Notes under the pieces: generated by a model
The model's database searches: none
What the model saw: the letters and a program-made list of their open reading frames with translations, nothing else
Told to the model about the DNA's origin: nothing
Part shown: positions 7,667-40,546 of the stretch, in pieces
Numbering within the stretch: position 1 is the first letter of the stretch
How the letters are laid out: the number at the start of each line of letters is the position of its first letter
Virus record (IMG/VR): IMGVR_UViG_3300004481_000286
Coordinates: 1 to 40,546 of that record
Strand: one strand, 5' to 3'
Length of the DNA stretch: 40,546 bases
DNA from: a virus
Program-made: the position numbers and the translations under genes

Positions 7667-8707
7667 TTACCCTTTAATCTGCACCGGCATTACGAGATAC
7701 GTTACACCATCAATGCCTGCGGGTGTTAGCACCACTGGTGTGGTTGGTGCATTTGCGGACAGGGTAATGGCTTCTGCGGGCTTGAAAGCCTTGATGCCGT
7801 CTAGCAAGTAGTGGACATTGAATGCCCAGGTGCCTTTAGCGGTGCCTTCAATTTTGAGCAGCTCTTTGCCGTTATTGGCGTCAGATTCAGCAGTGATGGC
7901 AATGGTGCCGCCTGCGGCTTCCAGCTTGACGATGGAGTTGTGAGCATCGGCGATGATGGCAACACGCTCTAGCGCACGGGTGAAGCGGTGCCGGTCAATG
8001 GTGATGGTGTGCTTGAAATCAGCAGGGATCAGCTTGGTGATATCGGGGTAGGTGCCGTCGAGGATGCGGCTGTAGATGGTGATGCCATCACCAGCGTCGA
8101 TGACGCACTGGCCACCTGCTGACGCGATGCCAACGTGACGATCCTGCAGCAGGCGCATGGTGCTGGCGGGTAGCACCAAGTCAATGCCGTCGGGGAGGTC
8201 AACCGCGTACCGCATGAGGCGGTGCCCGTCGGTGGCCTCCATGTGGCCGTTGGCAAGGTGAATGCCTTGCAGCAGGGCTTTGCTTGCATCGGTGCTGGCA
8301 GCGGTCATGCAGGCGCGTACACCAGCCGATAGGGCTAGCTCAGCGCTAGGAGCCTCTACAGCAGGCATGGCGGGGTAATCCGCTGCATCCTGGGCCGCAA
8401 GCCCGTAGGAGCCGCTGGAAGCCGTCAGACCTCCATCGTGCAGCGTTACAGCCTCATCGGCATCCATGCGGCTCACAAGGCCCGCCAGGAGCCTGTATGG
8501 CAGCGCTACGGCGCCTTCAGTGTCAACCACGGCTGGCGCGGTAACGGTGATGCCAAGGTCCAGGTTGAATCCGGTGACGGACATGGTGCCGCCTGCGGCT
8601 TGGATCAGGCAGCAGTCAAGAATCGGGTGTGTGCTGCGGACGCCAATGGCTGGCGCAATAGTGCGCAAGGCGTTGTCGAGATCAAATTGACAGGTTGTGA
8701 ATTGCAC
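7667..8707 (-). CDS. dnaN: DNA polymerase III beta sliding clamp (DnaN) homologue
   Basis: The ORF is open from 8839. DnaN-like sequence starts about at QFTTCQFDLDNALRTIAPAIGVRSTHPILDCCLIQAAGGTMSVTGFNLDLGI and ends ...TYLVMPVQIKG. The GTG at 8707 gives a canonical M-x-F N-terminus. The ATGs at 8785 and 8839 would add a Pro/Ser/Ala-rich extension and overlap the DUF3310 gene. Confidence 0.82.
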   Translation of the reverse strand: MQFTTCQFDLDNALRTIAPAIGVRSTHPILDCCLIQAAGGTMSVTGFNLDLGITVTAPAVVDTEGAVALPYRLLAGLVSRMDADEAVTLHDGGLTASSGSYGLAAQDAADYPAMPAVEAPSAELALSAGVRACMTAASTDASKALLQGIHLANGHMEATDGHRLMRYAVDLPDGIDLVLPASTMRLLQDRHVGIASAGGQCVIDAGDGITIYSRILDGTYPDITKLIPADFKHTITIDRHRFTRALERVAIIADAHNSIVKLEAAGGTIAITAESDANNGKELLKIEGTAKGTWAFNVHYLLDGIKAFKPAEAITLSANAPTTPVVLTPAGIDGVTYLVMPVQIKG

Positions 8708-8897
8708 GGTTGAGATACCAGATTGCTTTTTGAATGTCTTGGGTGCCGCCTTTGCGGTCAGCACGCCAGATGTATTTGATGGCATTGCCGCGGCAGTAGC
8801 CGGTGAACTGCTCAGGGGTGAGCGCGGCTTGGATGGCATCGATGCATTCGATGCTGCCAGCGGTGTAGTGGCTGGGATGGTTAACCGGATCAGACAC
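8682..8897 (-). CDS. DUF3310-family protein
   Basis: VNHPSHYTAGSIECIDAIQAAL...GNAIKYIWRADRKGGTQDIQKAIWYLNRAI matches the remembered DUF3310 signature (HPxHY ... KY.wR...K...D..KA..Y). The likely GTG start at 8897 overlaps the upstream stop. Upstream in-frame ATGs exist, up to 9008. Confidence 0.72.
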   Translation of the reverse strand: MSDPVNHPSHYTAGSIECIDAIQAALTPEQFTGYCRGNAIKYIWRADRKGGTQDIQKAIWYLNRAIHNLSI

Positions 8898-9102
8898 TAG
8901 CGGCAGCGGAAAGTGCAGCAATGATTTTGTCATAGGTGTCTTGAAAGGACGCCACGAGATCCAAGGGGATGGCGGCGCCGTCATCTTGGGCATTGTCGCG
9001 GATGGCATCGGCGTATGCCTGCGCCTGCGTCATGGCGTCATGCAGCCGATTGATGACCGGCGTCTGCTTGGCGGGAATGTTGATCAAGTCGGGTAATGAC
9101 AT
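8890..9102 (-). CDS. hypothetical protein (start uncertain: 9102 or 9033)
   Basis: ORF 8890-9177. The ATG at 9102 gives MSLPDLINIPAKQ..., and the ATG at 9033 gives a non-overlapping 47-aa product. Confidence 0.4.
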   Translation of the reverse strand: MSLPDLINIPAKQTPVINRLHDAMTQAQAYADAIRDNAQDDGAAIPLDLVASFQDTYDKIIAALSAAASV

Positions 9103-9322
9103 AAGCGATGAGTGTTTCAACTTGCAGCTTGGGCAGATCGCCGCGCATGTAGGCCGCGGCATCAGCCACCAGCGCATGGTACGCCGCCGTGGTCAACCGT
9201 GGCAATGCACCACTTAACGCTCTGTCACGGATGAGCGCCGTGCGGTTGGTGCCAGCAGCAGCAGCTTGGCGTTCCAGGTGCTGGATGTCTTCGGGGTTGA
9301 ATCGAACTTTAATTTCTTGCAT
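9038..9322 (-). CDS. ribbon-helix-helix (CopG/MobC-like) DNA-binding protein
   Basis: The internal ATG at 9322 gives MQEIKVRFNPEDIQHLERQAAAAGTNRTALIRDRAL, a beta-strand plus two-helix RHH pattern. It is the first gene downstream of the iteron region. Confidence 0.55.
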   Translation of the reverse strand: MQEIKVRFNPEDIQHLERQAAAAGTNRTALIRDRALSGALPRLTTAAYHALVADAAAYMRGDLPKLQVETLIAYVITRLDQHSRQADAGHQSAA

Positions 9323-9353
9323 TTTGGTGGTGCAGACGGTGCCAATAGTAGGT

Positions 9354-9710
9354 CGGACGCTAAAACCCGCATGAATACTGGGTTCGGACGCAAGCGGACG
9401 CAAGTCGGACGCAAAAAACCCAGTCATACCAACGATGGACGCAAAAAGGGCATTTCCCCTATCCCCCCCCTACGTAATTAAATGTTCACCCCGTTACACT
9501 TCCCACCTCTCTGTAAATACCTGATTTGATTTACCCCTATTTGCGTCCGAAGAGGTGAAAAGGTAGATAGAGACAGGGATCTTGCGTCCGAAATTTGCGT
9601 CCGACTAGCGTCCGATCGGACGCAAGTTGCGTCCGAAATCATGTCCACTGATCCAACTTGAGACCTTTGATGAGACGCTCTCGGGTTTTGCTGGGCTCCC
9701 GTTCGGACGC
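9354..9710. promoter_or_regulatory. iteron array: 12 copies of core GCGTCCG/CGGACGC (extended yTTGCGTCCGAm); candidate replication origin and/or operator set
   Basis: Read directly. CGGACGC is at 9354, 9385, 9395, 9406, 9617 and 9704, with a degenerate TGGACGC at 9436. GCGTCCG is at 9543, 9584, 9597, 9608 and 9629. The two clusters face each other across a 9450-9540 spacer that holds a C8 tract (9463-9470), TACGTAATTAAAT and two CCCCTAT copies. Confidence 0.75.
9608..9623. repeat. perfect 16-bp palindrome GCGTCCGATCGGACGC formed by two abutting iterons
   Basis: Read directly from the sequence. Confidence 0.9.
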
Positions 9711-12014
9711 AACTTTGGGGAAGATCTGGCGCAATGCAGCCACCAGCAACCGTGGCGCCTTGACGGTGCGATCACTTGGCGGGTCCATCAGCCATCTACC
9801 AGACTGATCCAAATAACCCTCCTCTCGATACCATTCTTGCAGTGCATCCCATACGCGCCTTGTTGACACCGACGCATCGTCTTCGTAGGTCAGTCCGATA
9901 GCATCGCAGAAGTCCCATAGGTGACAGCTAGCTCTGCGAACGTCCTGCATTGCTTGACTGCCAGTTGTGTAATCAATGCCATCTGCAATGCTGATGGCCA
10001 TGCCCTCTAGCAACCAGTTAAGGAATGCAGGGCATATCTGCTGCTGGATAAAGTCGGGATCATCCTTGAGCTTGGGATCGGCTTGGATGTGGCTTGGCTC
10101 TGTAGGTGTTGCCATAAAGGTCTTACGGAACTTGAAGACATGAAACCGCGTCTCAATAGCAGCCTGCTCACCAGTAAGGGATGGATCTTTGTTGAGGTTA
10201 AAAACAAACAATGCCGAAGGAACAAACTGGGACTCCTGCACGCCTTTGAGTTCATATGACAATTCCTCGCCACTGATAGCAGCCTTTAATGATTGAAGGT
10301 TGTCAATACTGACAAATTGCGAGTTCTCACTGGACCAGTTAACCGATGCACCACGCAATGGCGCAATAGGAAACTTACGGCCTTGGTCGTATTGACGGAA
10401 GTCGGCCAGTGTACAGGAGGTGAAATTACGACTGCCGAGGGTATCACGTAGGGCGGTGCGGATGGTGTCTTTACCGTTGCTGCCCTCACCGATCATGAGC
10501 ACCGCACGAGGCCTGCCGCGTATGGCGCGGTACTTAGCTAAATCAAGGCCACTGCCAAGGATGCGCTGCAAGGTATCGCGATCATTGGGCTCTACCGCTT
10601 CAAGTAAACGCCAGAGGTGCTGGGCATTGGCTTCAGGGTCATAGTTGTAAGCAGTGACGTAGGTAAATGCCACATCGGGATCATGCGGCGCAAAGGTGAG
10701 GTCTAGTTTCTTGCCAGACCATGACCAGGACACCACGCCATTACGGCAGTTGATGGCATTGGTTGGGTTGACGGGTACTGGTTCCAGCAACCGACGCATC
10801 CACGCAAGGGCCTCATCGACATAACGCGGGCGGCGCCATGGGTAGCAAGGCTCGCCAGATTTGCCGTCTATGACGTGGATCATGGAGAGGAATGCGGCTA
10901 GCTGCGGCGCCAGCTCGTCATCAGGTTTGGCTTGGTAGTGCGTGCCGTTCCAGACATGAAGAATGCCATCAACGCAAATCCAGCGGTCGCGGGGATGCCT
11001 GAAGACATGGGCAACGGTCAGGTCAAGCCAGTCGGTGCCGGTCTTGTCATAAAGCTGCAGATTGATGACCTCGCCATCACTAGGAGCCTCTAAGCGCTCA
11101 CGCCTTGCCTTGGGCATGGGCAGCGGTGGCCGCCAACCGTGATGCCTAGCCCAGTACCAAAATGTGCCGGCATTGATGCGGTCACCACCGGATGCAGCGA
11201 TCTGAGGTAGGCCTTGCCATTGCGGGCTGTGCGCCTGCATGAGATCAATGGCCTGCTCGGCGTTATCGCAGGCTTGGATCAAACCCCAGAAGATGTTGCG
11301 ATAGATGTGATAGGTGCCAGTGCCAGGCGTGCGTGGTGGTATTGCAGCGAGTGCTTCGCGGATCTCGTCAATGCCACGATCAATAGATTCGGCGTGCCGT
11401 TGTGCGGGTTGCTCATGCTGGTAATAGGCCTCAGATGGCAATACCGCTTCGATATCAGCAACGCTGTAGCGATGGCCGGCGCTGGTAACCATGCGGCACA
11501 TGTCACCGAGACTGCCATCCGCTTCGGCGTAATAGCTGCCTGGCAGCCGCATGACACGGGATGAGTTTTTGATGCTGCGGTCGGCATCGCAGTAATCAAG
11601 CAGTCGAGCTTGGACTAGCTCCCAGTGCTGCGGGGTGATGGGATCAGCAAGCACCCAATAACTGTGGATGGACTTGCCGCCGGTATCGATTTGAAACGTG
11701 GGTTCGGGCAGGCCAAGTTCCTGCCATGCGGTGAGTTGCCATTCACGAGGCCGATCATCCCATTCGGCAAAGAATGCGCGGCAGGCAGTGATTTCAGCAT
11801 TGGTATCACCGCCGTCATTGATGACGACATAAACGCCGCGGCCCTCGGCTTGCCACTGCTTGATCAGCGGCTTGCGGGCGCCACCCTTGCGGCCTTTGTC
11901 GGATGCCTTGTCTTGGTGCTCTTTGTGAAGAAAGGCACGCAGCCTGATGGTGCCTGCCGGTTTGCCGAGTAGGGCAATAAACCGACGGGCTTCTGAAAAG
12001 TCAATTTCCTTCAC
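9639..12014 (-). CDS. bifunctional primase-polymerase (AEP) / SF3 helicase (P4 alpha / D5-like primase-helicase)
   Basis: 791 aa. The N-terminal AEP motifs are FFAEWDD and TGGKSIHSYWVL. The C-terminal P4-family Walker A is MIGEGSNGKDT, with downstream helicase motifs. Confidence 0.88.
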   Translation of the reverse strand: MKEIDFSEARRFIALLGKPAGTIRLRAFLHKEHQDKASDKGRKGGARKPLIKQWQAEGRGVYVVINDGGDTNAEITACRAFFAEWDDRPREWQLTAWQELGLPEPTFQIDTGGKSIHSYWVLADPITPQHWELVQARLLDYCDADRSIKNSSRVMRLPGSYYAEADGSLGDMCRMVTSAGHRYSVADIEAVLPSEAYYQHEQPAQRHAESIDRGIDEIREALAAIPPRTPGTGTYHIYRNIFWGLIQACDNAEQAIDLMQAHSPQWQGLPQIAASGGDRINAGTFWYWARHHGWRPPLPMPKARRERLEAPSDGEVINLQLYDKTGTDWLDLTVAHVFRHPRDRWICVDGILHVWNGTHYQAKPDDELAPQLAAFLSMIHVIDGKSGEPCYPWRRPRYVDEALAWMRRLLEPVPVNPTNAINCRNGVVSWSWSGKKLDLTFAPHDPDVAFTYVTAYNYDPEANAQHLWRLLEAVEPNDRDTLQRILGSGLDLAKYRAIRGRPRAVLMIGEGSNGKDTIRTALRDTLGSRNFTSCTLADFRQYDQGRKFPIAPLRGASVNWSSENSQFVSIDNLQSLKAAISGEELSYELKGVQESQFVPSALFVFNLNKDPSLTGEQAAIETRFHVFKFRKTFMATPTEPSHIQADPKLKDDPDFIQQQICPAFLNWLLEGMAISIADGIDYTTGSQAMQDVRRASCHLWDFCDAIGLTYEDDASVSTRRVWDALQEWYREEGYLDQSGRWLMDPPSDRTVKAPRLLVAALRQIFPKVASEREPSKTRERLIKGLKLDQWT

Positions 12015-12187
12015 TTCACCACCAATGATCCAGTGGAGGGCAGGATGCCATCGCTGTGCAGTCGGATCGACTGATCCAGCAGCAGCCGGATGGCGGCACT
12101 GCGAGACAAAGTGTCACCACGCCAAGAATCCAGCCATTGCAGCTGATTTGGCGCAAGGCGCAGCGGTATTGGTCGGGCTAGCGGCAT
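12011..12187 (-). CDS. ribbon-helix-helix DNA-binding protein (candidate regulator of the divergent promoter region)
   Basis: The ATG at 12187 gives MPLARPIPLRLAPNQLQWLDSWRGDTLSRSAAIRLLLDQ, an RHH pattern. The stop overlaps the primase start. The track start at 12211 is a TTG. Confidence 0.55.
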   Translation of the reverse strand: MPLARPIPLRLAPNQLQWLDSWRGDTLSRSAAIRLLLDQSIRLHSDGILPSTGSLVVK

Positions 12188-12203
12188 TGGGTCCGGCCAG
12201 TGG

Positions 12204-12239
12204 CTTGACAAGTGTATACGGTTAGTCTACGGTGTCAAG
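12204..12239. promoter_or_regulatory. back-to-back divergent sigma-70-like promoters built on a 7-bp inverted repeat CTTGACA/TGTCAAG
   Basis: Plus strand: TTGACA (12205-12210), N17, TACGGT (12228-12233). Minus strand: TTGACA (12238-12233), N16, TACACT. The two -35 boxes are the arms of the inverted repeat. A GTATAC palindrome lies in the centre. Confidence 0.5.
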
Positions 12240-12255
12240 GCACGCGGCACCCATC

Positions 12256-12411
12256 ATGGAAACCACGCGACACCACGAAGAATTGATTGAAACTTTAGAG
12301 CGCATTGCCCAAGCCCTTGAGTGCATTCAAGACAGGCAAGGCGTGATTGCAAATGCGCTGCTGCAATTATCCGATCACCACGGCAGCAAGGTGCCAGGAC
12401 CGTACCGATGA
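12256..12411 (+). CDS. 51-aa hypothetical protein, first gene of the rightward arm (absent from the ORF track)
   Basis: My own translation is METTRHHEELIETLERIAQALECIQDRQGVIANALLQLSDHHGSKVPGPYR. Its stop shares an ATGA overlap with the next gene's start at 12408. Confidence 0.45.
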   Translation: METTRHHEELIETLERIAQALECIQDRQGVIANALLQLSDHHGSKVPGPYR

Positions 12412-14666
12412 CCTACCAAGACTTCCTAGCTTCAAAATCAACTGCCGCACCTGTTGCGGGGTTTGACCCGCAGGGGTTTACGGCGCCGCTGTTTCCGTTT
12501 CAGCGGGACATCGTGACCATGGCGTGCCGCGTCGGCAAGTTCTGCATCTGGGCCGACTGCGGCATGGGCAAAACTGCCATGCAGCTTGAGTGGGCGCATC
12601 AGGTGCACCTAGAAACCGGCGACAACGTGCTTGTGTTGGCGCCGCTTGCGGTAGCCCACCAGACCGTGCGTGAGGGCAGCAAGTTCGGCATCCCATGCCA
12701 GTTTGCGGCAACGCAAGCTGAGGTGAAGCCCGGCATCACGGTGACCAACTATGAGAAGTTGGCGCATTTTGACGCCGGCAGTTTTGCAGGTGTGGTGCTG
12801 GACGAGAGCAGCATCCTCAAGTCATACACGGGCAAGACCCGCAACCAGATCATCGAGTCATTTGCGCAGACGCCATACCGGCTGGCGTGCTCAGCTACGC
12901 CAGCGCCCAATGACCACATGGAGCTAGGCAATCATGCCGAGTTCATTGGGGTCATGACGCGTACTGAGATGCTGGCCATGTTCTTCGTGCATGACGGCGG
13001 CGACACCGCTAAATGGCGCCTTAAGGGTCACGCGCAAAGCAAGTTCTGGGAGTGGGTGTGCAGTTGGGCGGTGACGATCCGCAAGCCATCGGATCTGGGC
13101 TATGACGATGGCGACTTCGTGCTGCCAGCGCTGCAGATCCAAGATTGCACGGTGGAGACACCACGCGAGGCGGTCGCTGATGACGCAGGCCAGATGGCGT
13201 TATTTGCCATGGAGGCCCGCAGCCTTAACGATCAGCGCAAGGTGCGTAAGGCAAGCCTGCAATTGCGGGTTGACGCTGCAGCACAGCTTGCCAATAGCAA
13301 CGGTGAGCAGTGGCTGGTGTGGTGCGATCTCAATGATGAGAGCAAAGCGCTGACTGCTGCTATTGCTGGCGCTGTCGAGGTGTGCGGCGCTGATAGTGAT
13401 GACCATAAGCGGCAAGCGGCCATCGACTTTCAAGATGGCAAAATCCGCGTGCTGGTCAGCAAGCCCAGCATCTTTGGGTTTGGCCTGAACTTCCAGCGGT
13501 GCCACAACGTGGCATTTGTTGGGCTGAGTCATAGCTACGAGGCGTTCTATCAAGCCATCCGTAGGTGCTGGCGGTTTGGCCAGCAGCAACCAGTTAATGC
13601 GCACATCATCTACGACGTAGGCGAGGGTCGCGTGATTGAAAACATCCGCCGCAAAGAAGCGGACAGCATCCAAATGGCCCAATCAATGGTTGAAATCATG
13701 AAGCAACAAACCATGGAACAACTCAAAAAGATTCAGCGCCAAGTGGCACCGCATGTCACTGAGCACAAGTCCGGCGACAACTGGGACATGTACATGGGCG
13801 ACTGCGTGGAGAGCATTAAACAGCTTGACTCAGACAGCATCCACTACAGCATCTTTAGCCCGCCGTTTGCGTCGCTGTACACCTACAGCAATAGCGACCG
13901 TGATATGGGCAACAGCCGCACCAATCAGGAGTTCTTCGATCACTTTGTATTCCTGGCTAAGGAGCTGCATCGCGTGATGATGCCTGGCAGGTTGATTAGC
14001 TTCCACTGCATGAATCTGCCTAGCAGTAAAGAACGCGATGGCTTTATTGGTGTGAAGGACTTCCGTGGTGACATGCTGCGCATTTTCCAGGCTGCAGGAT
14101 TTGTATTCCATAGCGAGGTGTGCATCTGGAAGGATCCAGTCACCGCGATGCAGCGCACCAAAGCCATTGGCCTGCTGCATAAGCAAGTGCGCAAGGACTC
14201 AGCGCTTAGCCGCCAGGGCATCCCGGACTACCTGGTGACCGTGCGCAAGCTGGGCGACAACCCGGAGCCTGTCGCTGGACCGTTCACGGAGTTTGCAGGC
14301 GAGAATCCACCACCCAAAAGCAAGGATCCGATTAAAGACTCGATCAACATCTGGCAGCGGTATGCCAGCCCGGTTTGGATGGACATCAACCCATCGGATA
14401 CGCTCCAGTACCGCAGCGCACGAGCTAATGAGGATGAGCGCCACATCTGCCCGCTGCAGCTTGAGGTGATCCGTCGCGGCCTGCAGCTATGGAGCAACCC
14501 AGGCGACCTGGTGCTGTCGCCATTTGCCGGCATCGGCAGCGAGGGCTATTGCAGCCTGCAGATGGATCGCCGGTTTGTCGGCTTTGAGCTGAAACCGTCC
14601 TATTACAACTGCGCCGTGAAGAACCTGACGGAAGTTGCCAGCAATAAGCAGGGGGTGCTGGTGTGA
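12408..14666 (+). CDS. SNF2/SF2 helicase fused to beta-class N4/N6 DNA methyltransferase (SPPF catalytic motif, probably N4-cytosine type)
   Basis: Helicase motifs are ADCGMGKT (I), VVLDESS (II), CSATPAPND (III), and a C-lobe VLVSKPSIFGFGLNFQ...QAIRRCWRFGQ. Methyltransferase motifs are IHYSIFSPPF (IV), HICPLQLEV, and VLSPFAGIGSEG (I) in the PF01555 order. The likely ATG at 12408 is coupled to the upstream ORF. The track start at 12321 gives an Arg/Cys-rich, unlikely N-terminus. Confidence 0.88.
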   Translation: MTYQDFLASKSTAAPVAGFDPQGFTAPLFPFQRDIVTMACRVGKFCIWADCGMGKTAMQLEWAHQVHLETGDNVLVLAPLAVAHQTVREGSKFGIPCQFAATQAEVKPGITVTNYEKLAHFDAGSFAGVVLDESSILKSYTGKTRNQIIESFAQTPYRLACSATPAPNDHMELGNHAEFIGVMTRTEMLAMFFVHDGGDTAKWRLKGHAQSKFWEWVCSWAVTIRKPSDLGYDDGDFVLPALQIQDCTVETPREAVADDAGQMALFAMEARSLNDQRKVRKASLQLRVDAAAQLANSNGEQWLVWCDLNDESKALTAAIAGAVEVCGADSDDHKRQAAIDFQDGKIRVLVSKPSIFGFGLNFQRCHNVAFVGLSHSYEAFYQAIRRCWRFGQQQPVNAHIIYDVGEGRVIENIRRKEADSIQMAQSMVEIMKQQTMEQLKKIQRQVAPHVTEHKSGDNWDMYMGDCVESIKQLDSDSIHYSIFSPPFASLYTYSNSDRDMGNSRTNQEFFDHFVFLAKELHRVMMPGRLISFHCMNLPSSKERDGFIGVKDFRGDMLRIFQAAGFVFHSEVCIWKDPVTAMQRTKAIGLLHKQVRKDSALSRQGIPDYLVTVRKLGDNPEPVAGPFTEFAGENPPPKSKDPIKDSINIWQRYASPVWMDINPSDTLQYRSARANEDERHICPLQLEVIRRGLQLWSNPGDLVLSPFAGIGSEGYCSLQMDRRFVGFELKPSYYNCAVKNLTEVASNKQGVLV

Positions 14667-16012
14667 TGCACCTCCGCCCTTACCAACAACAACTGATCAC
14701 CGACATCCGGCTGCAATACCAGCTAGGGCGTAAGGCAGTCCTAGCAGTGCTGCCGACCGGCGGCGGCAAGACCGTGTGCTTTAGCTACATCGCCGAGCAA
14801 GCCGCCAAAAAGGGCAACCGCGTGCTGGTGCTTGTGCATCGGCAGGAGCTTCTAGATCAAGCCAGCAGGGCGATGGCCGTACCCCATGGCCGCATCAGCG
14901 CCAGCCGCAGCATGGACTTGTCCTACGCCGTACAGGTGGCATCAGTCCAAACCGTAGCCCGGAGATTGCACCTGCTGCCGCGTGACTTCTTTCAGCTGCT
15001 AGTGGTTGACGAGGCCCACCACACCACCGCCGGCACATGGGCCAAGGTCATCGAGCACTTTGCAGCTGCCAAGCTGCTAGGCGTCACCGCAACGCCGATA
15101 CGCGGTGACGGTCGCGGCCTAGGTGAGCACTACCAAGCGATGGTGGAAGGTCCAACTGCGCAGCAGCTGACGGATGACGGATTCCTCGCTGCGGCCAAGG
15201 TGCTAGCACCGCCGGGGTTTGACTCAGCCGGCTTGCGTAAGCGGATGGGTGATTTCGACACCAAGCAAGCCGAGCAGCGCGTCGGCACGATCATGGGCGA
15301 CTGCCTTGGCCATTACCGCAAACACCTGCTAGGCCAGACAGCGATTGCCTTCTGCTGCTCAGTGGCCCATGCTGAGGCGGTAGCTGCCTTGTTCCAGTCG
15401 GCTGGTATCGCCGCGGCCAGCATCGATGGCAGCATGGATGCCGGCACTAGGCGGGAGCTACTCAGCGACCTCGGCACCGGTCGGCTCAAGGTGCTGACCA
15501 GTTGCGCGCTCATCGGTGAAGGCGTGGACGTACCAAGCGTTGGCGGCTGCATCCTGCTGCGGCCTACGGCATCAGTGGCATTGCACCTGCAGATGATTGG
15601 CCGTTGTTTGCGCCCACAACCTGGCAAGCGTGCGGTAGTGCTGGATCATGTCGGCAACACACTGCGGCTTGGCCACCACCTAGAGCCGCGTGAGTGGACG
15701 CTGGAGGGGCTAAAGAAGCGCGACCGCGACGCAGCCCCATCGGTCAAGGTGTGCCCTACATGCTTTGCCACCAGCATCAGCACTGCGCAGGCGTGCCGCG
15801 AGTGCGGGCATGTGTTCGCGCCACCAGAGCGCAGGGAGTTGCGGCAGGTTGATGGTGAGCTGGTGGAGGTGGCGGCACGTGAGCGCAAGCGAGAGCAAGG
15901 TTCTGCGCAGTCGCTGGATGATCTCCGCGAGCTAGCACGTCAGCGACGCTATAAACCTGGTTGGGCGGAGCGGGTTTACCAGGCGCGACTGGCTAAGCGT
16001 TACGGAATGTGA
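14666..16012 (+). CDS. DEAD/DEAH-box SF2 helicase (type III restriction Res-like / XPB-like) with C-terminal zinc ribbon
   Basis: LPTGGGKT, VVDEAHH, GVTATP, the helicase C-lobe, then CPTCFATSISTAQACRECGH. It shares a TGATG overlap with the upstream gene. Confidence 0.85.
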   Translation: MHLRPYQQQLITDIRLQYQLGRKAVLAVLPTGGGKTVCFSYIAEQAAKKGNRVLVLVHRQELLDQASRAMAVPHGRISASRSMDLSYAVQVASVQTVARRLHLLPRDFFQLLVVDEAHHTTAGTWAKVIEHFAAAKLLGVTATPIRGDGRGLGEHYQAMVEGPTAQQLTDDGFLAAAKVLAPPGFDSAGLRKRMGDFDTKQAEQRVGTIMGDCLGHYRKHLLGQTAIAFCCSVAHAEAVAALFQSAGIAAASIDGSMDAGTRRELLSDLGTGRLKVLTSCALIGEGVDVPSVGGCILLRPTASVALHLQMIGRCLRPQPGKRAVVLDHVGNTLRLGHHLEPREWTLEGLKKRDRDAAPSVKVCPTCFATSISTAQACRECGHVFAPPERRELRQVDGELVEVAARERKREQGSAQSLDDLRELARQRRYKPGWAERVYQARLAKRYGM

Positions 16013-19737: not shown

Positions 19738-19943
19738 CTGAACCGTATCTCACAACTGACCAACTGGCGGCACGTTGGGGGCTAAAGCCAGCAGCCATCA
19801 AAAACCAACGCGCACGCAACATCGGACCTAGCTACTACACAATCCCGCGTATCGGCTTCCCTGCTGGTACGCCACGGGTGCGGTATCCACTAGCCCAAGT
19901 CCTGGCCTTTGAAGAGGCCAATTCCATCACCCCACTTAACTGA
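19734..19943 (+). CDS. small helix-turn-helix DNA-binding protein (excisionase/MerR-like HTH)
   Basis: MTEPYLTTDQLAARWGLKPAAIKNQRARNIGPSYYTIP.... It shares an ATGA overlap with the upstream ORF. Confidence 0.5.
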   Translation: MTEPYLTTDQLAARWGLKPAAIKNQRARNIGPSYYTIPRIGFPAGTPRVRYPLAQVLAFEEANSITPLN

Positions 19944-19944
19944 C

Positions 19945-20292
19945 ATGAGTCTTTACGCAACTGGCATCGTTCGCTTGATTACTGAGCCAACAATGCGCAC
20001 CTTTGACAGCGGCACTGTTGTCACCAACTTCGCTGGTGGTATTCAAGAGGGCAAAGATAAAGATGGCAATTGGATTAACAATGCCATCGACTGCGAAGTA
20101 TGGGGCAAGTCTGCTGAGCTGATTGTCGATAAACTCAAGAAAGGCGACAGCATCCTGATAACAGGTGCCATCCGCCGGCAAGAATGGAGCGACAAAGAAA
20201 CTGGCGCCAAGCGCAGTAAGCACATCCTGAGCATTCAGCGGTTTGAGTTCATGCCCCGTGGCGCGGTTGCTAGCGAGGAGGCAGTGTTCTAA
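19945..20292 (+). CDS. ssb: single-stranded DNA-binding protein (OB fold)
   Basis: MSLYATGIVRLITEPTMRTFDSGTVVTNFAGGIQE...CEVWGKSAELIVDKLKKGDSILITGAIRRQEW is a typical SSB pattern. Confidence 0.78.
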   Translation: MSLYATGIVRLITEPTMRTFDSGTVVTNFAGGIQEGKDKDGNWINNAIDCEVWGKSAELIVDKLKKGDSILITGAIRRQEWSDKETGAKRSKHILSIQRFEFMPRGAVASEEAVF

Positions 20293-22001: not shown

Positions 22002-22184
22002 TGATATTGCCTCTTGCGTCAACCAATGAATTTGCGACCGCTGGCTGGCTTCAGCCTCAGCCAACAGCAGCGCATATTCCAGCAACCCATTCATGTCGCC
22101 GCGTTTATGCAGTTCGCGCAATGCACTTGCGTTGGCAGCACCATGGAATTGTGCTTCCATTGTGTGAACCAGCGGGATCATCAT
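21942..22184 (-). CDS. opposite-strand small ORF in the dcd-sigma gap (hypothetical; extent uncertain)
   Basis: MEAQFHGAANASALRELHKRGDMNGLLEYALLLAEAEASQRSQIHWLTQEAI looks helical and protein-like. By my own count its third-position GC is higher than that of the competing plus-strand ORFs 21998-22195 and 22014-22208. The last 20 codons are antisense to dcd. Confidence 0.3.
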   Translation of the reverse strand: MMIPLVHTMEAQFHGAANASALRELHKRGDMNGLLEYALLLAEAEASQRSQIHWLTQEAISSCGSIQAWHLDAARELLGG

Positions 22185-23085
22185 GTCATCTATAAAAAAC
22201 TACCTTAACGAGATCGCAAGGTATCCATTGCTTACGGTGGACCAAGAGATTCAGTACGGTAGGCGCATCGCCAAGATGCGTGAGCTGCAACAGCTGGATC
22301 GCGACTTAACACCAGCAGAGGATCGGTTAGTGCGCAGTGGCCAACGTGCACGCGAGCGGTTCATTCAATGCAACCTGCAGCTGGTTGTGCACGTCGCCAA
22401 AAAGTACGAAGGCCGTAAGCGCAAGTCGCTTGAGATCATGGATTTGATTCAAGAGGGCAACATCGGCCTAGCGCGTGCGGTTGAATTGTTTGATTACTCA
22501 CGCGGCTACAAGTTCAGCACTTATGCGTACTGGTGGATTAAGCAAGGCATACAACGTGCATTGTCGCAGAATGATTCGATGATCAGGCTGCCGAGTGGTA
22601 TGCATGATCTGCTGGCAAAGGTAGCGCGCACCCATTCGGATTTAGGCCATCGATTAGGTCGCACGCCGTCGCTGCTAGATATTGCTGATGAGATTGGCGT
22701 TGATGTTAATACTATCCACGATGCAATCCAACGCAGCTATGCAGTATGCAGTTTGGATATGACACCGCCATCAGCTGATAGCATTACGCTTTTGGATGTC
22801 ATCGCAGATCCGCAATCTACGATTGATTTCGATGAGCTGAGCCTAAGCCATCAAGCGCAAGAGATGATGGACCTGATGGAAAAATACCTAGACGACCGCT
22901 CTAAATATGTCATCAGAAGTCGGCGATTGCAAAAGCCGCTAACTTGGCGTGAACTTGAATCAACCACTGGCGTATCGTCAACTCGGCTGATGCAGATCGA
23001 AAAGGCTGCAATGCTTAGATTGAGAATGATGCTGAACAAAGGAAGAGAACTACATGGCACACCACTGGGATCCTGTGACAATTGA
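22183..23085 (+). CDS. sigma-70 family RNA polymerase sigma factor (regions 1.2, 2, 3 and 4 present; group 2/3-like)
   Basis: YLNEIARYPLLTVDQEIQYGRRI is region 1.2. NLQLVVHVAKKY...DLIQEGNIGLARAVELFDYSRGYKFSTYAYWWIKQGIQRAL is region 2. MIRLPSGMHDLLAKV is region 3. TWRELESTTGVSSTRLMQIEKAAMLRLR is region 4. Confidence 0.9.
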   Translation: MSSIKNYLNEIARYPLLTVDQEIQYGRRIAKMRELQQLDRDLTPAEDRLVRSGQRARERFIQCNLQLVVHVAKKYEGRKRKSLEIMDLIQEGNIGLARAVELFDYSRGYKFSTYAYWWIKQGIQRALSQNDSMIRLPSGMHDLLAKVARTHSDLGHRLGRTPSLLDIADEIGVDVNTIHDAIQRSYAVCSLDMTPPSADSITLLDVIADPQSTIDFDELSLSHQAQEMMDLMEKYLDDRSKYVIRSRRLQKPLTWRELESTTGVSSTRLMQIEKAAMLRLRMMLNKGRELHGTPLGSCDN

Positions 23086-40278: not shown

Positions 40279-40546
40279 TCAATCGAAGTTAGAGGTGTTT
40301 GTGGCCCGCACGATTCCAAGGTTCTTGGTTTCGTACACCTTCGACCAGTTGCCAACTGTTGCCAGCTGAGCGCGGGTCGGGTTGGTGGTGGTCACGCCCC
40401 ACTTAGCACCCACAGGGTGATACACATAGTGCAGGTCGATCGACATGGCATCGCTCTTGGCGAGGATGTCTCTGTCTGTCTCTGTCTGCATCGCCATTTG
40501 CTCACCGCTGGCGATTGCGCCTTGGGTGAAGAAATAGGTTGCGTAC
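40279..40546 (-). CDS. major capsid protein, C-terminal part (continues from 1-827 through the circular junction)
   Basis: The frame of ORF 40279-40497 (…QTETDRDILAKSDAMSIDLHYVYHPVGAKWGV...NTSNFD) is continuous with the minus frame that is open at base 1, once the 60-bp repeat is collapsed. Confidence 0.85.
   Translation of the reverse strand, partial: YATYFFTQGAIASGEQMAMQTETDRDILAKSDAMSIDLHYVYHPVGAKWGVTTTNPTRAQLATVGNWSKVYETKNLGIVRATNTSNFD
40487..40546. repeat. 60-bp terminal direct repeat, copy 2
   Basis: Identical to bases 1-60. Confidence 0.95.

Follow-up and report, generated by a model that had tools for sequence, protein, structure and literature searches.

A putative iteron origin beside the primase-helicase gene of a siphovirus genome

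We analyzed the 40,546 nucleotides of IMG/VR virus record IMGVR_UViG_3300004481_000286 (hereafter the window, to which all coordinates refer) and focused on an array of short repeats, or iterons, at 9353-9712, which begins inside the 3′ end of a primase-helicase gene and continues into the gap that follows it. The genes beside the array lie on the minus strand. We propose that this region is the replication origin of the phage, that it resembles the origins of staphylococcal pathogenicity islands (SaPIs), and that it is read by the adjoining primase-helicase. Based on sequence comparison, a structural model and analogy, we give this reading a probability of about 0.75. A preliminary description of the same DNA had already placed an iteron origin, like those of SaPIs and other phage-inducible chromosomal islands (PICIs), 3′ of the primase-helicase. 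That proposal gains support from repeat cores that are conserved, a motif that changes with the protein, a helicase region homologous to that of the SaPI5 protein PriRep5, and a predicted C-terminal winged helix.

Architecture and conservation of the iteron array

The iteron TTGCGTCCGA, allowing up to one mismatch, occurs 11 times in the window, and all 11 copies fall within the 360 bp of 9353-9712. In dinucleotide-preserving shuffles of the window (n = 100) the same search returned 2.74 ± 1.62 copies with a maximum of 8, and none of the shuffles reached 11. The 7-mer GCGTCCG is present 15 times where 6.4 ± 2.3 are expected, with 11 of the 15 in the same region. A twelfth copy, TTGCGTCCAT at 9435-9444, carries two mismatches, yet the TTGCGTCC core of its slot is invariant in relatives. 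These counts establish that the array reported in the preliminary description is real, and the genome-wide motif count suggested there as a check shows the enrichment, with near-matches confined to one locus.

Along the direction of transcription, the order of elements is the intragenic iteron (9712-9703), the stop codon, six iterons, a 96-bp spacer and five iterons. Plus-strand copies start at 9541, 9582, 9595, 9606 and 9627, and minus-strand copies start at 9353, 9384, 9394, 9405, 9435, 9616 and 9703. The gene-proximal cluster (9541..9636) consists of the sites 9627-9636(+), 9616-9625(-), 9606-9615(+), 9595-9604(+), 9582-9591(+) and 9541-9550(+), with start-to-start spacings of 11, 10, 11, 13 and 41 bp and cores that are invariant in our alignment A2. 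The gene-distal cluster (9353..9444) has all of its sites on the minus strand, at 9435-9444, 9405-9414, 9394-9403, 9384-9393 and 9353-9362, spaced by 30, 11, 10 and 31 bp. Adjacent sites are mostly 10-11 bp apart, or about one helical turn, with larger steps of 30-31 and 41 bp. Several of the distal sites have a T-rich 5′ extension (GGGTTTTT-iteron), which is found in other motif classes too. The first intergenic iteron begins 3 bp past the stop codon (9636, with the stop codon at 9641-9639), and the same is true in relatives.

Read in the direction of the gene, five of the six proximal iterons appear as TCGGACGCAA and one is inverted, whereas all five distal ones appear as TTGCGTCCGA. Because the two clusters are opposed, each shows the same face to the center, and the single inverted proximal copy creates a perfect 16-bp palindrome, GCGTCCGATCGGACGC, at 9608-9623. 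The 96-bp central spacer (9445..9540), which we propose as the zone of unwinding and priming, contains a C8/G8 run at 9463-9470, TACGTAATTAAAT at 9471-9483, and a CCCCTAT box near each edge (9456-9462 and 9534-9540). Its AT content is 55% compared to 44% for the genome, and its duplex stability places it in the 99.5-99.9th percentile of least stable windows. The opposed orientations described previously, with one copy inside the primase 3′ end, agree with these positions, and the palindrome, the C8 run and both CCCCTAT copies listed there can be read directly in the sequence. The accompanying statement that this is the only long non-coding stretch holds approximately, with other candidate gaps filled by small open reading frames (ORFs) on the same strand. 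An apparent gap at 1-893 is probably a gene that crosses the ends of the circular assembly, likely the major capsid gene.

Searching IMG/VR with the primase-helicase as query yielded 65 loci at 42-92% identity, and more distant homologues were reached through a protein database. Every locus of at least 69% identity that has enough downstream sequence carries the same array in the same place. In an alignment of 14 diverse relatives of motif class A, hardly any column outside the TTGCGTCC cores is invariant, a pattern that extends to 55 related metagenomic viral loci, and the intervening sequence is variable, with insertions and deletions; individual iteron slots are sometimes lost. Judged from the alignment, this is the conservation pattern of protein-binding sites as opposed to coding sequence or a folded RNA. 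Sub-classes within class A differ in the 3′ flank of the iteron, which reads TTGCGTCCGA in some and TTGCGTCCGCC in others.

In loci L046-L050 and L054, with 60-67% protein identity, GCGTCCG is absent and TTTGCCTTCG occurs in two opposed clusters instead. Counted from the stop codon, TTTGCCTTCG lies at offsets 4, 26, 37, 49 and 79 in one orientation ('<') and 13, 184, 214, 225, 246 and 278 in the other ('>'), and the window iterons lie at 4, 25, 36, 49 and 90 ('<') and 13, 194, 224, 235, 245 and 276 ('>'). The inverted copy at about +13, which forms the palindrome, is kept in these relatives. Relatives beyond class A keep the slot layout after the same gene with other motifs, such as TTTGCCTTCG, GGTTGGAAC and ATGGCTTCCCC. 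The array after the gene is built from GGACCCAA/TTGCCTC in L066, TTGSCTYC in L067, ATGSCTTCCCC in L068 and L071, GGGAGCCTGT in L069, GGTTGGAAC in L072 (where the helicase half is VapE-like) and AACTGCCTCAC in L073. At least eight motif classes occur on the one slot layout, and from clade to clade the motif shifts along with the neighboring protein. In 58/66 distinct loci, the most 8-mer-repetitive window of the locus is the 450 bp that follow the gene, the exceptions being degenerate arrays; exact 8-mer counts under-detect the degenerate arrays of L066, L067 and L069-L071, which were read by eye. A G-run with a TATA/TACGT box recurs in the spacers of classes A, B, C and D and of cyanophage S-2L, and is less clear in classes E and F.

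Searches by nucleotide sequence were less productive. Megablast of the array region against 50,697 phage records gave no match. A genome-collection scan for CGGACGCAA-N3-4-CGGACGCAA returned at least 120 loci in unrelated bacteria, none of which encodes a relative of the primase-helicase; the scan provided no host or satellite lead. Dense TTGCGTCC/GGACGCAA clusters were observed in unrelated bacterial contigs, at 7475-7981 of L108 and 3752-4109 of L149 (Pirellulales metagenome-assembled genome JBFXAH01), 4689-4846 of L194 and 1952-2531 of L176. They reach 10 copies per 450 bp, some in both orientations, in loci that were chosen by the search pattern itself, and the fetched 8 kb around these four clusters contain no primase-helicase homologue.

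The primase-helicase as the proposed initiator

The primase-helicase (9639..12014, minus strand) is a protein of 791 aa. Pfam and PHROGs searches and structural modeling describe an N-terminal primase-polymerase (PrimPol) domain of the archaeo-eukaryotic primase (AEP) type, a D5_N/DUF5906 superfamily 3 (SF3) helicase and a C-terminal winged-helix-like domain. As far as sequence and model indicate, this domain content fits that of an initiator. A phmmer search of PDB sequences matched the AEP domain of the S-2L PrimPol (6ZP9, E 1.8e-32) and, over residues 441-592, SaPI5 PriRep5 (7OLA, E 4.2e-5), 7OLA being the entry given for PriRep5 in PMC9371898.

The proposed iteron reader is a predicted winged-helix domain of approximately residues 708-787 (9654..9893, minus strand). 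In an AlphaFold2 model of the last 171 aa, the mean predicted local distance difference test (pLDDT) score is 79, with values of 77-94 over model residues 80-170. Foldseek comparison of the model to the PDB returned mostly winged-helix DNA-binding domains, including those of RFX (8zjr_M and 1dp7_P, TM-target 0.67-0.68), PadR, MarR, ORC and Cdt1. Identity over the C-terminal stretch is 0.76-0.82 within class A and 0.40-0.50 between classes, a larger drop than that of the helicase core.

The intragenic iteron TTGCGTCCGA (9703..9712, minus strand) encodes V768-A-S-E771 in strand β2 of the predicted winged helix. Within its codons, AAA-(C/G/A)TT-GCG-TCC, the third (mostly synonymous) positions are invariant in 37 distinct relatives, whereas neighboring third positions vary (32-97%). 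In addition, the 3′ flank of the intragenic copy (GA or GC, giving Glu/Asp or Ala) is the majority flank of the intergenic copies in 55/55 loci. The third-position constraint and the flank concordance together argue from sequence that the intragenic copy is a working site.

A proposed mechanism and the explanations that compete with it

We hypothesize that the C-terminal winged helix binds the ~10-bp iterons, with their invariant core TTGCGTCC, in two clusters that would face each other across the easily melted 96-bp spacer. Since the clusters are opposed across this spacer, helicase rings could form at both clusters, in the way suggested for SaPI Rep proteins. Next, the spacer would open, and the AEP PrimPol domain of the primase-helicase itself would prime DNA synthesis. 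Binding, melting, ring loading and priming are all inferred from the SaPI model. Elongation may be supported by the phage's own beta sliding clamp DnaN (7667-8839, minus strand) and single-stranded DNA-binding protein (SSB; 19909-20292, plus strand). The replicase may be the PrimPol itself, as has been proposed for S-2L; the alternative is that the host polymerase is recruited by the phage clamp.

Several observations weigh against this reading. The winged-helix assignment depends on a model for which the best Foldseek E value is 0.011, and a profile search of solved structures matches PriRep5 over the D5_N/helicase region and not at the C-terminus. Phylogeny is a confounder of the correspondence between motif class and protein clade, and L046 and L047-50 have one motif in common but different wing sequences. 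The change of flank from GA to GC may have been a single evolutionary event, so that the 55/55 concordance carries less weight than its count implies. Although the spacer is unstable, some other stretch of the genome is even less stable, and cumulative GC skew does not turn at 9.4 kb. Further, the protein that binds the iterons could instead be an unlinked one from the phage or the host.

The preliminary description had also offered the repeats as operators for a ribbon-helix-helix (RHH) protein or as elements over a late promoter. One RHH gene and one RHH-like ORF lie nearby. A NikA-like RHH gene (9038..9322, minus strand; Pfam PF21983, E 1.7e-6) is a neighbor of the array and is not required for it, and a small RHH-like ORF of 66 aa (12011..12211, minus strand; IPLRLAPNQLQWLD...SRSAAIRLLLDQ; no Pfam match) overlaps the primase-helicase start codon and is probably an operon regulator and not part of the origin. 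Known targets of RHH proteins such as omega of pSM19035, ParG and CopG include arrays of short repeats in direct and inverted orientation, and a repressor encoded at 9322..9038 or 12211..12011 could in this way control transcription of DnaN, the terminase and the structural genes. In agreement with such a role, the downstream RHH gene starts 31 bp beyond the last repeat, and most relatives keep an RHH gene directly downstream (50 loci). However, the array is intact in at least nine loci where no RHH gene follows it (L016/17, L043/45/59 and L047-50). The 66-aa ORF is conserved in class A loci; in L047-50 an unrelated small ORF takes its place, and these loci keep the iteron array with the same motif as L046, which has RHH genes on both sides. 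Persistence of the array where RHH genes are absent or replaced suggests that it travels with the primase-helicase and not with RHH. RHH divergence is also unrelated to motif class: the window RHH stands at 53% to the class B RHH of L046 and at 47-72% to class A RHHs, and loci that share a motif can have different RHH N-terminal strands (IKVRFN and IKINVT). Given these results, we consider RHH operators very unlikely.

We scanned 8800-10200 for promoters and terminators and detected no site in the gap, nor any sigma-70-like promoter there, which also speaks against operators. A TACTAT sequence close to the RHH start could be a -10 box but is not maintained among relatives, and the late-promoter idea was therefore dropped. 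At 22183-23085 (plus strand) lies a gene for a full-length sigma-70-family factor that includes regions 1.2, 2, 3 and 4, so phage promoters may depart from the standard consensus used in the scan. We also observed that a conserved ORF at 8890-9177 (minus strand) overlaps the 3′ part of the RHH gene at 9038-9322 in another frame and has tblastn matches in 49 relatives; the annotated start of this ORF or of the RHH gene, or the end of the RHH gene, is uncertain in position.

Recognition of the origin as a structure, in which a large hairpin or cruciform is extruded from the inverted clusters, by analogy with the stem-loop proposed for the archaeal plasmid pRN1, and the repeats matter as complementary arms, appears highly improbable to us. 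It would account for the predicted single-stranded DNA fold of 9345-9645, which reaches -61.5 kcal/mol compared to -38.5 ± 3.5 in shuffles (z = -6.7) and is this strong because the iteron clusters are inverted. It would also fit the fact that both arms change motif together across clades, which keeps them complementary, and the gene order of pRN1, where an RHH gene, a PrimPol-SF3-winged-helix gene and a downstream origin follow one another (PMC4234260). Yet arm complementarity is sufficient for a hairpin and does not call for five or six 8-mer copies per arm spaced at about one helical turn, and the sequence between the sites is non-complementary. Site numbers in the arms can be unequal, with 4 and 2 in L046 and 5 and 3 in L072, and slots are lost asymmetrically, since L033/36/40 lack only the middle right-arm site (9394-9403) and L061 lacks only a left-arm site (9606-9615). 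Lastly, the opposite arm offers no counterpart for the two palindromic copies by the stop codon, nor for the intragenic copy.

Least probable in our judgment is that the array serves something besides initiation, whether as a terminase pac site, as a partition centromere or as sites for an unlinked phage or host factor. Repeat arrays do act as pac, cosB and parS sites in other systems, and the terminase genes lie ~2 kb downstream of the array. However, L066-L069, L072 and L074 keep the array by the primase-helicase with different downstream genes and no terminase nearby. The scanned ORFs of the window include neither ParA/ParB nor an integrase, and the region is free of DnaA boxes. An origin read by the primase-helicase is therefore the explanation we favor.

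Known replicons, genome context and a possible portable module

In SaPI origins, 6-12 iterons follow rep directly, divided equally between the two flanks of an AT-rich center and opposed in orientation, and they are read by a C-terminal winged helix (PMC9371898). The window resembles SaPIs and PICIs, with SaPI5 PriRep5 and its origin as the example, in having short iterons directly 3′ of the initiator gene (six, five and one intragenic) that are split around an AT-rich center, opposed, and more than two to a side. In both, primase and SF3 helicase are fused in a protein of ~790-800 aa that ends in a winged helix, a predicted one in the window, and the SF3 helicase region is homologous to PriRep5. 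Unlike a SaPI, the window represents the whole 40.5-kb genome of a siphovirus, structural genes included and with no integrase seen, as opposed to a chromosomal island. Its iterons are 8-10 bp compared to 5-6 bp in SaPIs, and one of them is intragenic. The N-terminal domain is an S-2L-type AEP PrimPol, the winged helix has no sequence-detectable similarity to the SaPI Rep domain, and the lineage is probably cyanobacterial or aquatic and not staphylococcal. By analogy, the array would work like a SaPI origin, although the element itself is not a SaPI.

The likeness to P4, drawn together with that to SaPIs and PICIs in the preliminary description, is weaker. The P4 alpha protein is said, from the work of Ziegelin et al. 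and Yeo et al. (PDB 1KA8), to unite a primase, an SF3 helicase and, at the C-terminus, a winged-helix domain that binds the origin by reading short iterons, and the window primase-helicase has the same three parts in one polypeptide, the last of them predicted. However, P4 has a Toprim/DnaG-type primase and needs a second, distant iteron cluster, crr, whereas the window primase is of the AEP type (the 6ZP9 match). There is also no crr-like cluster in the window, where no TTGCGTCCGA copy with up to one mismatch lies outside 9353-9712 and the iterons are all at one locus. Two defining traits of P4 are missing here.

In cyanophage S-2L, the PrimPol has been described as the sole polymerase candidate (PMC8065100). 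The window shares with S-2L a PrimPol AEP domain of ~40% identity (tblastn, residues 13-294), the gene order of annealing protein, PD-(D/E)XK exonuclease, superfamily 2 (SF2) helicase, VRR-NUC and PrimPol-helicase, and the lack of any other DNA polymerase gene among the scanned ORFs. The two differ in the C-terminal half of the protein, which is VirE/VapE-like in the S-2L PrimPol (S2L_32) and D5_N/DUF5906 in the window, and no purZ/datZ-type genes were found among the scanned window ORFs. Both have repeats with a C-run in the gap after the PrimPol gene. In S-2L this gap is 360 bp long (L070 6166-6526; MW334946.1 23038-23398) and contains looser GTGCC/GGCAC repeats that flank a C9 run and a purine-rich tract, which makes it, from sequence, a candidate origin. 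No origin is described in the S-2L paper (PMC8065100), and a full-text search of the literature for S-2L or cyanophage origins with iterons found nothing relevant.

In pRN1, orf56 and orf904 form an operon, and the origin is a ~100-nt stem-loop downstream of orf904 that has no iterons (PMC4234260). The window is similar in that a small RHH-like gene lies directly upstream of, and overlaps, the gene for the PrimPol, SF3 helicase and predicted winged helix, with the array just downstream as the origin is in pRN1. It differs in that its element is built of repeated motifs resembling protein sites and that it belongs to a bacterial virus and not an archaeal plasmid. We also considered an iteron origin of the RepA type. 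Theta-plasmid origins of this type combine direct repeats of 17-22 bp in tandem with DnaA boxes and, to one side, an AT-rich region; this candidate was rejected, as the window repeats are ~10 bp in two opposed clusters and no DnaA box (TTWTNCACA-like) occurs in 9300-9720. TTWTNCACA with up to one mismatch is under-represented in the window as a whole, with 20 occurrences compared to 52 ± 7 in shuffles, 100/100 of which had at least 20.

The first 60 bases of the window are an exact repeat of the last 60 (40487-40546). This terminal overlap indicates a complete, circularly assembled genome of ~40.5 kb (about 40,486 bp). Terminase, portal-region, scaffold, tape-measure and tail-fiber genes are present, and the window is a complete and apparently lytic siphovirus, probably of a cyanobacterial or aquatic lineage. 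On the minus strand, the gene order is the primase-helicase (12014..9639), the 316-bp gap, the NikA-like RHH gene (9322..9038), DUF3310, DnaN, a 107-aa ORF and TerL. Further genes encode RecT, a PD-(D/E)XK exonuclease, VRR-NUC, SSB, two SF2 helicases, a dCTP-deaminase-like protein and the sigma-70-family factor. The scanned ORFs contain no integrase, no ParA/ParB and no DNA polymerase besides the PrimPol domain. There are no Rfam matches at gathering thresholds and no tRNA genes in the window. A 781-aa ORF at 12321-14666 (plus strand) joins an SF2/SNF2-like helicase and an N6/N4 DNA methyltransferase domain in one protein, and the second SF2 helicase gene (14663-16012) follows it directly.

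A related module was observed outside phages. In Synechococcus sp. CS-1332 (JAHLYP010000051.1; L074, from 9211-12778 onwards), a 925-aa PrimPol-D5 helicase homologue lies ~450 bp from the chromosomal transfer-messenger RNA (tmRNA) gene. The gene is followed by a two-cluster array with the motif ATGSCTTCCCC and a palindrome at the stop codon. The adjoining genes encode restriction-like proteins and nucleases, and phage structural genes are absent within 10 kb. The neighborhood of a tmRNA gene is the setting described for tycheposon or PICI-like elements, and the locus looks like a putative island of this kind with its own origin. We speculate that a PrimPol-helicase with a downstream origin is a portable replicon that switches specificity quickly and is common to S-2L-like phages and picocyanobacterial islands, an idea that we regard as unlikely though worth stating. 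If it is true, an iteron within the winged-helix coding sequence would tie the evolution of the protein to that of its own site. If islands and phages with matching iterons can share initiators, motif switching would reflect an arms race over replication.

The layout is already known from staphylococcal pathogenicity islands, and a specialist would find it fairly ordinary, an expected element in an expected place. What it provides is a testable putative origin for uncultured siphoviruses with S-2L-like replication genes, and the comparative data make the array a good experimental system. Natural motif classes on a fixed layout form a panel for asking how winged-helix initiators read iterons and for constructing replicons that are compatible or incompatible. 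The presence of this module in a Synechococcus chromosomal island also suggests a way in which islands of this type could replicate.

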